Below are positions 58,469 through 64,000 of a DNA stretch of 64,000 bases, one piece after another; within the stretch, counting starts at the first letter, position 1; each line of letters begins with the position of its first letter. This stretch comes from Escherichia coli (lineage in GTDB: Bacteria; Pseudomonadota; Gammaproteobacteria; Enterobacterales; Enterobacteriaceae), in the NCBI RefSeq assembly GCF_044324875.1, contig NZ_CP172185.1. One strand, given 5' to 3'. The translations under genes were made by a program, and so were the position numbers. The notes beneath the pieces are model-generated. The model worked only from the letters and a program-made list of their open reading frames with translations. It did not search any database and had not been told where the DNA came from.

Positions 58469-59571
58469 TGGTAATGGCTAACTTAGATAAAGACCTAGGT
58501 TTGAAGCAAGACGCTATAAGGTTTTGCTTGATAAATGGTTACTTGCCATTTTTAGAAGTTAACGTTGAAAACTATAGGGAACTTTCTGATACATCTACAA
58601 TTATAACAGATGTAGATGTTTTAGGGGTTGCTTTTGATATAACTGGAAAAACCAGAAAGATAATTTTCGATTGTAAAACCATTAAAAATACCAGCCCTAT
58701 TAATAGAGCGTTTTGGGCTTCCGGTGTTATGAATTTTTTAGGCTATGATGAAGCATTCATCATATTAAGAAAGAAAGCAAGTGAGGCCCATAGACTTTCC
58801 GCAAAAACAATTAATGTCCACCTTTTTGATGAAGATCAAATGAAAGGATATGCTCAATCATTTTCAATGAATTTCAATATTGATTTAAGCTACTCTACGG
58901 ACATTAATAATTGGATAAGTATACAGGAAGTATATAAAACAGATAAAACCATCCAAAAATATGGCGAATTTTTAGCAAGTTCGGTTCCTACAGAAAATGA
59001 TCCAGCGAAGAATTTGAGAAGATTTATTGCTGCTTTACAAAAAGTGAAGAATGAACTAGACCCTCAAAAAAATAAACACAGAGCAATTTACTTGCATAGT
59101 CTAATGACATTCTCATATATTATGGCATGCTTAGTGCAGCAACTAAGAGGGTTAATTGATTTTGATTATAATCAGAATGAATTCACAAGACTTCTCAAAT
59201 ATTATATCTGGGGAGGGAAGGATAGCTTTATATTAAGACATAAGATGAGAGAACTAATCTCATCTAATGACAGTTCGATTCAAAATATAGAGCCAGAGTT
59301 AAGGAATTGGGATGACTTTATTGAACTCACAAGGAGTCTACTTGACTCTCCTAATGATATAATTAAATGTTGCCATGTGTTACGTGAATTTAGTTTTTTA
59401 GAACTATCCATGCATGACATTAAAAAGGATGAGCAACTATCCACTCTAATTTCAGATAATTCAAGAATTCGTCAATTTATAATGATAATGGCTAGATACT
59501 TAACCAACTCGATGAAAATGCCAAAAGATTTCATTAACGATCTAGTATCAATATTTGATAGATTGAGATAA
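58468..59571 (+). CDS. hypothetical protein, island operon gene B; N-terminal PD-(D/E)xK-like motif
   Basis: 367-aa ORF; TAATG overlap with gene A (alternative ATG at 58474 has GGAG 8 nt upstream); residues 48-70 TDVDVLGVAF...KIIFDCKT fit hD...(D/E)xK. Confidence 0.75.
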   Translation: MVMANLDKDLGLKQDAIRFCLINGYLPFLEVNVENYRELSDTSTIITDVDVLGVAFDITGKTRKIIFDCKTIKNTSPINRAFWASGVMNFLGYDEAFIILRKKASEAHRLSAKTINVHLFDEDQMKGYAQSFSMNFNIDLSYSTDINNWISIQEVYKTDKTIQKYGEFLASSVPTENDPAKNLRRFIAALQKVKNELDPQKNKHRAIYLHSLMTFSYIMACLVQQLRGLIDFDYNQNEFTRLLKYYIWGGKDSFILRHKMRELISSNDSSIQNIEPELRNWDDFIELTRSLLDSPNDIIKCCHVLREFSFLELSMHDIKKDEQLSTLISDNSRIRQFIMIMARYLTNSMKMPKDFINDLVSIFDRLR

Positions 59572-59708: not shown

Positions 59709-60266
59709 TCAGGAGGCATTCATTTCTTTTTTCACGCGAAACACTGTAGCCCTGCCACAATCGCACAACTTTGCAATCTCATCCGGTGTGTTCTTCCCAG
59801 CTTGAAGCATCTCAATGATTTTACTGTGTAATTCTTTGTTCTTTTGCTTTCCTTTATACTTCTTAGCCTCTTTAGCAAGGGCAATTCCTTCGTTGCGACG
59901 TGATGCGATCATTCCCCGCTCAAATTCTGCAACGGCTCCCATCATGGTTAAGATTAAACGAGATTGTGGGGAGTTATCGAAACTCATTGAGTTAGCAAGG
60001 AACTGAACAGTGATCCCGCGAGCAACGAGGCTATCAATCATTTCCAGCAAATCGCGGGTATTACGTGCAAGGCGATCAATCGAGTGAGTCATGAGCGTAT
60101 CACCTTCGCGGAGGTGTGAAAGCAGGTTCAACAATTCAGGTCTCTCGCTGGTGGACTTACCTGATTCTTTCTCGGTGACGATTTTGTCACAAACAGGTTC
60201 CAGTACTGCCAACTGACGCTCAAGATTCTGATCCTTTGTTGAGACTCTCGCGTAACCAAAAATCAT
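59709..60266 (-). CDS. small serine recombinase (resolvase/invertase family)
   Basis: N-terminal catalytic motif FGYARVSTKDQ with serine nucleophile, C-terminal helix-turn-helix GRATVFRVKKE; start placed at MIFGYARV (ORF-track ATG at 60296 lies inside the dyad sites). Confidence 0.88.
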   Translation of the reverse strand: MIFGYARVSTKDQNLERQLAVLEPVCDKIVTEKESGKSTSERPELLNLLSHLREGDTLMTHSIDRLARNTRDLLEMIDSLVARGITVQFLANSMSFDNSPQSRLILTMMGAVAEFERGMIASRRNEGIALAKEAKKYKGKQKNKELHSKIIEMLQAGKNTPDEIAKLCDCGRATVFRVKKEMNAS

Positions 60267-60288: not shown

Positions 60289-60353
60289 AGTATCATTTAA
60301 ATTAACTGAATGATACAGTATCATTTAAATTCTTTCAATGTCTAAATGATACT
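60289..60353. promoter_or_regulatory. tandem dyad-symmetric sites upstream of the recombinase (res/hix-like)
   Basis: Two copies of agtatcatttaaatt (60289-60303, 60317-60331), each paired 11 bp downstream with an inverted half-site (aatgatac 60309-60316; taaatgatact 60343-60353). Confidence 0.6.
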
Positions 60354-60770
60354 AAACGAGACAAGAAAAACGGGTATCGTTAGGGAGTACCCAAAAGAGA
60401 TTTTTGATCGTGCGTTTTTTAGTCAATGTAGGGTTAGTGAAAAGTTCAGTACCGAGATCTGAGTTCACGGCATTTTGTCGACGGGGTTGAACCTGATTAG
60501 GCGAACGAGATTTTAAATCAGGCGGAATAAAACAAGTTGTACTTTTATCTGAGTAAACGATCCCTTTAACTTTTTAGTCAGAAATCGTGATACTAGGGGT
60601 TTGGTTATTTTGTGTCCTTAAGGCCAGTACTTTTAGCGAGGACGAAAAAACGGCCTACATGAGAACGCTTACAGTAACTTAAGTATATTATCCAAAAAGT
60701 CACTTAACTTAAATCAATTTGGATGCAAAATCGCCACACTTTGCAAGTGAACACATACCGGGCAACAAGC

Positions 60771-60796
60771 AAATAAAAAAGGCCACTTTCGCGACC
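60771..60796 (-). terminator. minus-strand intrinsic terminator after the 119-aa gene
   Basis: On the minus transcript GGUCGC-GAAA-GUGGCC (stem with two G-U wobbles) followed by UUUUUUUAUUU; the stem does not form on the plus transcript. Confidence 0.5.
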
Positions 60797-60814
60797 TTGT
60801 ACCAGTACAAACAC

Positions 60815-61174
60815 TCATTCAGAACGATCAAGTACCATATATGCTGGCTGACACATGCTGCCCCGCTCCTGTAGCCAGTAGTAATCAAGATCGGCAACAC
60901 GCACGTCCAATCCAGAATCTACACGGTTGATCTGTAACCGTAGCCCTACAGTATCCTTGTACGATAAACCAGATTTAACATTGTATTTGTACTTAACACC
61001 GTTTTCCTGTTCAAACTGTTTAAGGAAAGGCGTCATTTGTTTCTGAATTTCTTTCAAACAAATAACCTCATTATCAATAGCAAAGGGGGGTTCTGTTTTT
61101 CCATCAGGTACAGCAGCCTGTAAATGAAAGGAAGTACTCAACAATAACAGCATTGCAACAGAAGTCTTTTTCAT
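60815..61174 (-). CDS. hypothetical small secreted protein
   Basis: 119 aa; signal peptide MKKTSVAMLLLLSTSFHLQA then AVP; AAGGAA Shine-Dalgarno; 43 nt downstream of the membrane-protein gene. Confidence 0.7.
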   Translation of the reverse strand: MKKTSVAMLLLLSTSFHLQAAVPDGKTEPPFAIDNEVICLKEIQKQMTPFLKQFEQENGVKYKYNVKSGLSYKDTVGLRLQINRVDSGLDVRVADLDYYWLQERGSMCQPAYMVLDRSE

Positions 61175-61217
61175 TTTAATTCCTTATTAAAGAACAGTAC
61201 ATTATATTTCAATGGAC

Positions 61218-62258
61218 TTAATAACAATATTTTATATTTCCTTCGGGTTTTCTCATGCATTTAATTCCTTCAGGAATATAATCAGTTACGGGAGCAGGTC
61301 TGGCATCAGGTCTTGAAAGACGATTGGATATAGAAGACAACAGACTGAAAACACACTCATTAAATGATTTTTGATATTTATTTTTTTCATAAAAGTACTG
61401 CATGGTGATTTTATCTCTTTCGTATTGCAATTCTTTGCCAAGCTGAATCCTATCCATATCAATTCCATTTCTCATAGCATTAAATCTTTCGTTCAATAAA
61501 TTAAATTGAGATTTATTCCATTCATTTAAAGGAAATAAAGAATTGTTAAGCCTTTGCCTACAATTAGATTGCTCGATAGCTGACATGTATTCTTTCATAC
61601 TAACGCCAATATCTAAGTATGTGAGTTGTCCAGCAGTTCTATCAACTGAGTTATTAGGGTAAGATTTAATTTCAGTAAGTATTGACTCTGTTAATACTGC
61701 ATTTTCTTCTAAATCTTTGCTAATAGTTATTTGAGCTTGTTCTCTTTTATCCTTATCAAATATTGAAATGTATTTCTTTACTATATCCTGATTAGCTTTC
61801 TCGGCTGCTACTAACGCATCTTGAACCTTCTTTTCCGCCGCTTTAACTCGTTGTTCTTCTACAAATTTCGCGTAGTCATCAGTATTTGTAATGTGATTTT
61901 CACGAGCGATAGAAAACTCTTTACTATCTTTAAAACCAAGTTTTTGTGCTCTGGCTCCATCGCTTGAAGATCGGGCAGAACTTGCCACGAAAGCGAGCAC
62001 AATGATCAGTACAGGAACCGTATAATTATTAACGAGTTTATAGGGTAAGAACTTCGCTTTAAGCGTACCATAACCCAAAACAGCCCAGCCTATCGCGGCA
62101 GTACTTGCCAGTAGCTGGCACAATCCAGCGACGGAAAGCATGATTACCGACCAGAAGCCTGTACCGACTGCGAAAAGATCACCAAATTTCTCCATTGACG
62201 CAAGGAATAAAAACACTCCCCAAATGCCATAAAATCCTATTTTCAAATATTTACTCAC
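61218..62258 (-). CDS. hypothetical membrane protein with coiled-coil-like soluble domain
   Basis: 346 aa, probable GTG start after AGGA; three hydrophobic segments in the first ~95 residues, then a charged Lys/Glu-rich region. Confidence 0.7.
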   Translation of the reverse strand: MSKYLKIGFYGIWGVFLFLASMEKFGDLFAVGTGFWSVIMLSVAGLCQLLASTAAIGWAVLGYGTLKAKFLPYKLVNNYTVPVLIIVLAFVASSARSSSDGARAQKLGFKDSKEFSIARENHITNTDDYAKFVEEQRVKAAEKKVQDALVAAEKANQDIVKKYISIFDKDKREQAQITISKDLEENAVLTESILTEIKSYPNNSVDRTAGQLTYLDIGVSMKEYMSAIEQSNCRQRLNNSLFPLNEWNKSQFNLLNERFNAMRNGIDMDRIQLGKELQYERDKITMQYFYEKNKYQKSFNECVFSLLSSISNRLSRPDARPAPVTDYIPEGIKCMRKPEGNIKYCY

Positions 62259-62479
62259 CGCAATTATCCTTTAATAATTTTCCAAATCGATGGTTCGTTC
62301 TATTTGTATTATCGACAATAATTCGTTTGCCTTTAGGTAGATCCCTTAAAAAGGAATCCCCCCAAAATTTATAGATTAGCAGTTGTACCACTCTCACTGT
62401 TTTGTCACTCCCATTATCTTCTCTCAGGTCAAAAGTACGGACTTAAAGCCGTCCGTGTTCAGGTGCTCAAGAGTAGCAC

Positions 62480-62590
62480 GCATATCAATAAATGATCGAT
62501 AAAAACGATCAATTAATGGATTATTGATTGCTATAATCGATCAATTACTATTAATTCAATACAAATCAATAGGTAAAATCGATCAAGAGG
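62480..62590. repeat. iteron-like direct repeats, GATC-rich
   Basis: Three copies of a-atcgatcaa at 62503-62513, 62535-62545, 62577-62587 and two longer atcaata...atcgat units; several GATC sites. Confidence 0.6.
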
Positions 62591-62754
62591 ATTCGTCATC
62601 CATGAAAGGGGTTATGTATCTGATTTCAATACAGGGAGTATTAGCGATACCATCACGCAAACGCTCTTAAAGCGTAGCTACGGCGTTTTGTAGGGTTTTG
62701 GTCATTCATGTGTGTCAGTAATGAACATCGCATTCAGGGGCTTCCTGTGCGTTT

Positions 62755-63241: not shown

Positions 63242-64000
63242 TCATTTTTTGCTTTTTTGTACTTCCTTTTCGTATTTGTTCCACATAGCCTTTTGCTCTT
63301 CGGGACTGAGTGCTGTATTACCACTGGCAAGAAACACCTTGAACGCTTCTAACTCAAGCCCTGGGTTGTGGCTTTTCCAGCGGCGAAAACGCTTAGCGTG
63401 ATTATCATCAAGAGTGAAACGCTTTTGCTTATTCTTTGAACCTTGCGGCCTGCCTCTCGACCTCTGCTCATCATCAATACCGATATCTATATACTCAATA
63501 TTATCTGTAAGAGATCTGGCTTGCCATTCATCAAAAACATAAACAGTCTGTGTTTCAGTACTGTCAAAATCCCTTGAAATTCCTCGTAGTACGAACTGGT
63601 GTAAACTTTCGTACTCCCTCGCAACATGTATCGCCTCGCCGTCAATCTCAAAGAACAATTCGCACTGTTTAGCCTCTGTTTCAGAGGGACGCATACAAGC
63701 GAGCCAGACGCACGTGAGCAAGTGTTGGTACTGGTTAAATCCTCTGGCATCCGGGCTTATCTCTGTGCCGTTCCTTAGGCTCTGAGAATCGCTTTTGTTC
63801 TTCGTCCAGTAGAAATCCTGCCCCTCAAGTTTCTCATCAATAAATGAGTATATTTTTTGTACTTTATCAGGGTTGTTAGTCTTCCATGTCTTTGATAGTT
63901 TGTTGTTTTTTGAGAAGTAATAAACTTTTAATCTGTTTTTGAGTTCAGTTTTTCGTGTCAGTAATCCTTCAAGTTCAGTACTTTCAAAGAGTTCTTTATT
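63242..64000 (-). CDS. hypothetical protein, 5'-truncated by the window end
   Basis: My translation finds the frame of the 159-aa track ORF open for all 93 upstream codons to position 64000 (at least 252 aa); C-terminus has AT-hook-like RGRPQGSKNK. Confidence 0.6.
   Translation of the reverse strand, partial: NKELFESTELEGLLTRKTELKNRLKVYYFSKNNKLSKTWKTNNPDKVQKIYSFIDEKLEGQDFYWTKNKSDSQSLRNGTEISPDARGFNQYQHLLTCVWLACMRPSETEAKQCELFFEIDGEAIHVAREYESLHQFVLRGISRDFDSTETQTVYVFDEWQARSLTDNIEYIDIGIDDEQRSRGRPQGSKNKQKRFTLDDNHAKRFRRWKSHNPGLELEAFKVFLASGNTALSPEEQKAMWNKYEKEVQKSKK

Follow-up and report, generated by a model that had tools for sequence, protein, structure and literature searches.

An operon of two predicted envelope proteins with apparently exchangeable periplasmic modules in the backbone of a family of integrative islands

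The Escherichia coli DNA analyzed here, a stretch of 64,000 nucleotides from contig NZ_CP172185.1 (RefSeq assembly GCF_044324875.1; hereafter the window), exhibits near its end two adjacent minus-strand genes, designated A and B. They form a bicistronic operon, which is a backbone component of a family of integrative islands and not part of the cargo of those islands. Gene A corresponds to a predicted inner-membrane protein carrying a large periplasmic head, and gene B to a predicted soluble periplasmic protein; neither belongs to any described family. Comparison of the homologous loci indicates that the head types and the B types are swapped independently of each other by recombination. As to function, our tentative first choice is an envelope-level exclusion or protection module. 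The features of the pair are as follows.

61218-62258, minus strand: gene A, 346 amino acids (aa), GTG start, RefSeq coding sequence (CDS) WP_000049760.1; inner-membrane protein with a predicted periplasmic C-terminus.
61764-62258, minus strand: conserved module of A, codons 1 to about 165; three predicted transmembrane (TM) helices, cytoplasmic loop, juxtamembrane motif and start of the stalk.
61218-61763, minus strand: head of A, type CT1, codons about 166-346; all-alpha bundle with a C-terminal beta-hairpin, exchangeable, predicted to be periplasmic.
60815-61174, minus strand: gene B (type B1), 119 aa, ATG start; predicted Sec-exported soluble periplasmic protein.
60769-60798, minus strand: intrinsic terminator closing the A-B operon, hairpin AAGGTCGCGAAAGTGGCCTT followed by TTTTATTT.

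The stop of A (61218) and the start of B (61174) have 43 nt between them. Both genes exhibit an AAGGA Shine-Dalgarno (SD) sequence, 8 nt upstream of the GTG of A and 7 nt upstream of the ATG of B. The T-run of the terminator is found on the minus strand only, and the terminator 3' of B1 is also kept in another locus of the family (L002). An earlier note, made from the letters of the window alone, had described the two open reading frames (ORFs) and their spacing, the two SD sequences, a terminator specific to the minus-strand transcript, three N-terminal hydrophobic segments followed by a charged domain in A, a signal peptide in B, and a recombinase gene in the same direction. This description holds throughout; the ORFs are exact and correspond to the CDSs of RefSeq, which lists both as hypothetical proteins in genomes with 100% identity across the stretch. 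The homologues of A and B fall into 106 and 204 clusters, respectively, and purifying selection acts on the two genes across genera. A and B are thus real genes and not chance ORFs.

An AlphaFold2 (AF2) model of the A protein places its TM helices at residues 3-30, 35-63 and 80-106, in agreement with the three N-terminal segments in the hydropathy profile; the remainder of the protein is charged (40 Lys+Arg and 37 Asp+Glu in 251 residues). Two lysines precede the first helix, the loop behind it (EKFGD) is net acidic, and the loop at 63-79 contains three lysines. From hydropathy, the AF2 helices and this positive-inside charge distribution, we predict that the N-terminus is cytoplasmic and that the residues past about 97 are periplasmic. 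The topology prediction is supported by several features of the relatives. Distant A homologues exhibit one additional N-terminal TM segment followed by a KKRK-type stretch; elsewhere, the C-terminal domain of A follows a two-TM anchor whose loop is strongly basic, and in the protein P0239 it follows a cleavable signal peptide. The head also contains four invariant cysteines (233, 302, 334 and 345 in the CT1 type). In the model the CT1 head is carried on a helical stalk and is predicted with good local scores (predicted local distance difference test, pLDDT, 80-96). The cytoplasmic portions would be small, six N-terminal residues and a loop about 15 residues long, the latter with the conserved motif LPYKxVNNYTVP. 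A second motif, LGF..EF..A(K/R).NNI...Y.KF, occupies the periplasmic juxtamembrane position throughout the family; its residues L107, F109 and I123 are invariant even among 20%-identical relatives.

The B protein begins with a typical Sec signal, MKKTSVAMLLLLSTSFHLQA|AVPDGK, with a signal peptidase I site LQA|AV. It exhibits no lipobox and no cysteine at position +1. The mature part, with the invariant cysteines 39 and 108, hardly varies among 30 homologues (at least nine genera), while the signal region drifts freely. The AF2 model of B, of low confidence, shows a single helix on a three-stranded sheet.

The earlier note had recognized no family for either protein, and had named clear homology to a characterized housekeeping or phage structural protein as the finding that would speak against its interpretation; no search revealed such homology. 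A exhibits no significant match in Pfam, NCBIfam, PADLOC or PHROGs and none to PDB sequence profiles. B has no significant match in NCBIfam, PADLOC or PHROGs and no PDB sequence-profile match; against Pfam, B1 retrieves nothing even at E<=10, and is not a member of LprI/DUF1311 (PF07007). The defence-protein models of PADLOC-DB 2.0 yield zero families for A and B. Of the two computational checks proposed in the earlier note, topology prediction gave three TM helices with the N-terminus in and the C-terminus out. The structure-based search provided models and no informative fold match: the CT1 head has no specific match in PDB or AFDB, and the low-confidence model of B retrieves no structural relative. 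A literature search returned no paper on the protein accessions or on the island type.

The modular organization becomes apparent when A is compared with its relatives. Proteins 70-93% identical to one another over residues 1 to about 150 bear unrelated C-termini, the identity dropping sharply at residues 136-165. At least five unrelated head types are found on the A anchor: CT1, the type of the window; CT2, the commonest, in proteins of 257 aa; CT3; and two more in distant members. A sixth type is found on an alternative two-TM anchor. The position directly downstream, hereafter the B slot, is filled by at least four types of small genes (B1, LprI/DUF1311, p105 and p132), the products of which all begin with a signal peptide and contain cysteines in even number. 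LprI/DUF1311 is cited as an immunity-type domain of type VI secretion systems (T6SS) (PMC12135965), and the LprI-domain protein ScwA is periplasmic and disulfide-bonded and does not inhibit lysozyme (PMC7933661).

Heads and slot occupants combine freely. CT1 is accompanied by B1 in the window, by LprI/DUF1311 in Klebsiella, by p105 and p132 together in Pectobacterium, and by an LprI-X-p105 fusion in Aeromonas. CT2 is found with B1 and also with p105 and p132, and CT3 with LprI. B1 in turn also follows a gene with a different anchor and a different head. Domains of both kinds can moreover reside in one secreted polypeptide: P0239 is a natural fusion of a signal peptide, an LprI domain (Pfam LprI, E = 6.8e-5) and CT1, in addition to the single secreted fusion of LprI, X and p105 mentioned above. 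Given the independent swapping and these fusions, the head and B domains would be parallel, self-sufficient periplasmic modules and not a cognate pair. In one E. coli genome, strain 2022CK-00450 (L028 1830-2560), an IS1A element interrupts B1 at codon 7-8, with a 9-bp target duplication CTATCGCAG, and leaves the upstream A2 gene intact. Two other insertions were observed in the family: in L029 an A3 gene is cut short at its 5' end by IS1, and an IS3 lies in the leader 5' of an intact A1-B1 pair in L027. The CT2 head also occurs outside the islands. It matches the phage families phrog_20749 and phrog_13160, and one accessory gene in a P2-like Pseudomonas phage encodes a protein made up of a Zn-ribbon, one TM segment and CT2.

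In all complete loci, A is followed by one or two small secreted-protein genes, optional cargo, and a small serine recombinase gene. This synteny is alike in at least 15 loci from eight genera; the islands of the family are small and chromosomal and belong to Enterobacterales, apart from one in Aeromonas. Around it, the integrase is of one of three large serine recombinase (LSR) types or a tyrosine integrase next to ffs/ybaZ, and the cargo differs completely from island to island: SMODS, AAA_15/21, HNH with DUF6998, or an annotated anti-phage protein. The anti-phage cargo is located between B and the small recombinase gene or beside the latter. The A-B pair is accordingly a backbone component of the island family.

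The distribution of the pair is narrow. Among complete E. coli genomes, 85 contain the island recombinase (30 of the window type and 55 of another type), 80 exhibit A/B-like DNA and 29 the exact A1-B1 pair, with one copy of the pair per genome. When 1.84 billion cluster representatives were searched exhaustively with a profile, only 33 members of the A family were recovered, and only eight of about 100,000 species-representative genomes encode A (from Enterobacter, Pantoea, Raoultella, Rahnella, Kosakonia and Aeromonas). No relative of A was found in the 2.9 million viral contigs of IMG/VR, where A alone was searched, and neither A nor B occurs in 50,697 phage genomes; a phage origin of the pair is rejected on these grounds. 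A single plasmid of 72,556, a Pantoea megaplasmid, carries A, and a plasmid origin is rejected as well.

Two further observations concern the architecture of related islands. In those with the tyrosine integrase, a 7.2-kb backbone (P-loop gene, A, B, recombinase, DUF2188) is found in either orientation between E. coli strains at 99.7% identity (L007 4829-12009 compared with L014; also L026, L002, L023 and L013). It is bounded by perfect 141-bp inverted repeats, and a second pair of about 140 bp brackets the integrase gene. The LSR island of the window is devoid of these repeats. A Cys-rich zinc-ribbon ORF (MSNYFTIxCPHCxSTTTVQTGVSKNG...) lies between an LprI-type B gene and the recombinase gene in two islands despite their different integrases (L007 9407-9568 and L009 11523-11741); the window has none.

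The island of the window is 9,585 bp long (L001 8113-17697) and extends from position 56812 to past the window end. It was integrated by an LSR. The nadC gene ends at 56561. The island splits ppdD, a type IV pilin gene, around codons 13-16, and 84 nt of its 5' end remain (56764-56847 region). Of 5,426 complete E. coli genomes, nearly all have the empty site. Along the direction of A, the order is: LSR gene (beyond the window), P-loop gene, a 983-nt non-coding leader, A, B, terminator, small serine recombinase gene, cargo. The features in the window outside the operon and its leader are the following.

56800-56811, no strand: 12-bp core shared at the left junction, inside ppdD, defined by comparison with the empty site.
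57182-58468 and 58468-59571, plus strand: two overlapping cargo genes, 428 and 367 aa, between the small recombinase gene and the left end of the island.
59709-60266, minus strand: small serine recombinase of the resolvase/invertase type, 185 aa (phrog_125 DNA invertase, 6.8e-59), in the same direction as A-B.
63242-64000 and past the window end (L001 14543-15976), minus strand: 3' part of the gene for a P-loop protein of 477 aa; annotation, type III restriction R subunit.

Homologues and RefSeq place the start of the small recombinase at the MIFGYARVS codon (60266); the longest-ORF start at 60296 would give 195 aa. Recombinases of this type are 77-97% identical in all LSR-type islands. In Aeromonas the recombinase is 91% identical and A only about 32% identical, and the orientation of the gene relative to A-B is flipped in Rahnella (L019) and Aeromonas (L021). 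Directly 5' of the recombinase gene lies a tandem 24-nt repeat, AGTATCATTTAAATT..., at 60289-60312 and 60317-60340, overlapping the best promoter-like site (60338-60310); it is possibly a binding or autoregulation site of the recombinase. The P-loop protein exhibits a Walker A motif (GSGKT), matches phrog_2467 at 5e-38, is 74-92% identical across islands and ends with an AT-hook-like RGRPxGS motif; it is identical in strain MSI001. Its gene is the usual upstream neighbour of A and is sometimes replaced. It lies just 5' of a repeat-rich gap, a position like that of the rep-ori modules of phage satellites. The two cargo genes show no Pfam-independent family match, except a weak one of the second to PADLOC PD-T4-9_C (E = 0.009), and only six E. 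coli genomes harbor the island with exactly these genes. Since other islands hold recognizable defence cargo at equivalent positions, they may represent an undescribed defence pair. A related LSR island in Klebsiella (L009) abuts a PilT/T2SSE-type ATPase gene, so that two islands of the family are found in or next to genes of type IV pilus or competence type.

The leader 5' of A is conserved across islands whatever the integrase, the recombinase or the P-loop gene. It contains the following features.

62251-62397, minus strand: upstream ORF of 48 codons, starting MRVVQLLIYKFWG..., the stop of which overlaps the GTG of A.
62430-62456, minus strand: leader hairpin ACGGAC-GGCTTTAA-GTCCGT with T-run, just 5' of an ancestral SD sequence (GGGAG).
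62488-62593, no strand: GATC-rich repeats (A/T)NCGATCAA (CGATCAA), three to four copies, partly palindromic.

The hairpin is near-invariant in eight islands of five genera. The repeat region contains four GATC in 106 nt, compared with 4.45 per kb in the island, an 8-fold local excess; the repeats are candidate operators of an A promoter, Dam-dependent phase-variation sites or iterons of an island origin located downstream of the P-loop gene. The minus-strand sequence of 62395-62480 can fold so as to bring GUUACUCUUG into pairing with CGGGAGUGAC, the SD region, around the internal hairpin 62456-62437. This fold is a possible SD-sequestering element; its helix shows covariation in one pair only, and the leader has no match in Rfam. 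Type 2 A alleles begin exactly at the start of the 48-codon ORF, with MRVVQL(V/I)IYGFWG, and the first 13 residues of this ORF mimic the N-terminus of A. L007, L009 and L016 have it interrupted, at different codons; the ORF is therefore no conserved gene but a fossil of an ancestral 5' end of A left behind by allele replacement. The islands of Pectobacterium, Rahnella and Yersinia have, instead of this leader, a gene for a CI-like S24 repressor and a divergent Cro-like HTH_35 gene, the latter ending 5-16 nt ahead of the anchored-protein gene. SOS control of the window allele is rejected, as there is neither a LexA box nor a CI/Cro remnant.

What could the pair do? Most known anti-phage systems are cytoplasmic, and the envelope barriers of mobile elements are few and poorly catalogued. 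We favour envelope protection because two recombining periplasmic modules are part of the backbone and because sibling modules are linked to defence or lysogenic conversion. The mechanism would be as follows. The islands carry anti-phage cargo and integrate through interchangeable integrases, with A-B in their constant part. The conserved three-helix module of A would anchor the protein in the inner membrane, from which the disulfide-bonded, exchangeable head would reach into the periplasm on its stalk. B would be exported separately as a free soluble protein. The head and B could then act in parallel as binding or inhibitor modules, blocking something that crosses the periplasm, such as the DNA-delivery apparatus of a phage or a tail-associated wall hydrolase; periplasm-acting bacteriocins or T6SS effectors are alternative targets. 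The island-carrying cell would be protected as a result. The operon structure, the modularity without co-variation, the linkage to the backbone and the absence from phages and (but for one) plasmids are observations; from the architecture of the proteins we infer the protective function and its target. Among the roles proposed in the earlier note, namely superinfection exclusion, an abortive-infection effector or a toxin/immunity pair, exclusion at the envelope is the most compatible with our results, which speak neither for nor against an abortive-infection effector; that note had missed the backbone membership and the modularity.

Several observations weigh against a protective role. No homology links A or B1 to a characterized exclusion, immunity or defence protein in PADLOC, PHROGs, NCBIfam or Pfam; the fold searches are uninformative and the model of B is of low confidence. 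The anchor is conserved beyond the need of a simple anchor, down to invariant positions in the loop on the cytoplasmic side and in the juxtamembrane motif, which hints at an activity of its own. The location of the pair directly 3' of the Cro-like gene and opposite the CI-like repressor in three genera suggests induced expression instead of constitutive protection. B1 is highly conserved (70-99%), unlike many arms-race proteins. Lastly, A and B are absent from sequenced phages, the usual home of classical exclusion genes.

A bolder version of the protective reading, which we regard as doubtful, is that A-B founds a combinatorial "periplasmic head" system. A constant anchor and stalk with swappable heads and secreted partners would then constitute a new class of envelope barrier against phages or effectors, and the invariant core of undescribed, partly invertible, integrative defence islands. 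If the pair is protective, it offers a compact model for how mobile elements diversify their envelope defences, and functions would be gained for the orphan periplasmic domains CT1, CT2 (phrog_20749), B1 and p105/p132. If it serves the life cycle of the element instead, it provides a handle on how such islands move. Either way, the results correct the reading of a small gene behind a variable membrane protein as immunity behind toxin.

The best surviving alternative, though an unlikely one, is an envelope function of the induction phase: A-B would be made upon derepression of the island and serve its cycle through lysis timing, release or uptake. The Cro-proximal position of the anchored-protein gene points this way, as do the backbone status of the pair and the conserved leader, whose hairpin and GATC repeats suggest tight regulation. 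The architecture also resembles that of the T4 proteins T and RI. The islands examined contain no endolysin, spanin or structural gene, however, and the window allele is without CI/Cro and without a LexA box. Co-variation with the bound periplasmic domain would be expected of an antiholin; B shows none, and unrelated folds fill its slot.

We consider it quite unlikely that A is a membrane or periplasmic toxin with a polymorphic C-terminus and B its secreted antidote, the pair stabilizing the island by addiction or killing infected cells by abortive infection. A constant N-terminus, a variable C-terminus and then a small gene are the layout of polymorphic toxin loci, LprI/DUF1311 in the B slot is an immunity-type domain, and the pair adjoins a resolvase gene, as do plasmid stability regions such as RK2 par and that of pSM19035. 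The toxin/immunity role put forward in the earlier note is nevertheless disfavoured, because the B-slot gene does not co-vary with the head type and because domains of the head and B kinds are joined within one secreted polypeptide; a single genome in which IS1 disrupts B1 next to an intact A2 points the same way. No head gives a toxin match in Pfam, NCBIfam or PHROGs.

Very unlikely, in our view, is an entry exclusion specific to the element, in which the resident pair would block a second, related element and the head would set the exclusion group. Such systems are known from conjugative elements (TraS/TraT of F, Eex of SXT). An inner-membrane protein beside an exported protein recalls traS-traT, the discrete head types could represent specificity groups, and a backbone gene present in essentially every island at one copy per genome would fit. 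Against this stand the lack of a recognizable conjugation, relaxase or oriT function in the examined islands, the near-confinement of A to chromosomes (the lone plasmid noted above), and the nature of B, which unlike TraT is not a lipoprotein.

The least probable of these alternatives is an envelope sensor, the variable head detecting phage attack or wall damage and the anchor relaying the signal through the invariant cytoplasmic loop to island functions. Conservation indeed peaks in this loop with the start of the third helix (YKxVNNYTVP), and likewise at the juxtamembrane motif, to a degree that a passive anchor would not call for; the heads are variable, like sensor domains, and defence cargo lies downstream. 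Nevertheless, the cytoplasmic parts are tiny, there is neither an output domain nor a conserved cytoplasmic partner gene, and the cargo to be controlled is wholly different between islands. Two further candidates are rejected: switching of the A C-terminus of the Gin/Cin/Hin type, since the window and L001 exhibit only weak AT-rich inverted repeats, none of them where the constant and variable parts meet, and the stretch from B to the recombinase gene contains no alternative cassette; and a spanin (Rz/Rz1) pair, since B has no lipobox and the sole hint is a weak Rz-like match of a distant relative (E = 0.02).

Returning to envelope protection, the closest parallels among known systems are the superinfection-exclusion proteins of phages, such as the membrane protein Imm of T4 with Sp, the periplasmic inhibitor of the gp5 tail lysozyme, SieA of P22 and gp15 of HK97. 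Like such pairs, A-B is borne by a mobile element, is small, combines one inner-membrane component with one small Sec-exported periplasmic component, and exhibits no enzymatic motifs. It differs in that there is no sequence or fold similarity, that it is located on non-phage islands and absent from the 50,697 phage genomes, and that A displays its head, which is large and modular, from a conserved anchor of three TM segments.

Polymorphic toxin/immunity loci and orphan "polyimmunity" arrays (Rhs, CDI, T6SS effectors) share with the A-B family a constant N-terminal part with recombining C-terminal domains, and small exported proteins directly 3', among which LprI/DUF1311 can be found; the fusions of several small periplasmic domains in the A-B family recall polyimmunity proteins. 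In contrast to these loci, A-B shows no co-variation and no domain for toxicity or trafficking, A resides in the membrane as an integral protein instead of being a secreted effector, and B1 is not LprI.

In phage T4, the holin T is a membrane protein whose periplasmic domain is large and disulfide-bonded; RI, the antiholin, is small and periplasmic. A-B resembles this arrangement of a membrane protein with such a domain and a small exported partner. It differs from T/RI in residing on islands without a lysis cassette, in the three TM segments of A (one in T), and in the lack of both co-variation and homology. The accessory CT2 proteins of temperate phages (phrog_20749, phrog_13160, and a 171-aa ORF of Pseudomonas phage F_HA1961sp/Pa1641) have the same head as the type 2 siblings of A, a membrane anchor and an accessory position. 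Their anchor is a Zn-ribbon with one TM segment, whereas the A protein of the window bears CT1, a head without a phage relative. Compared with all these known kinds, A-B differs in its carrier, a non-phage integrative island, in its conserved anchor with interchangeable heads, and in a secreted partner that is itself independently interchangeable.

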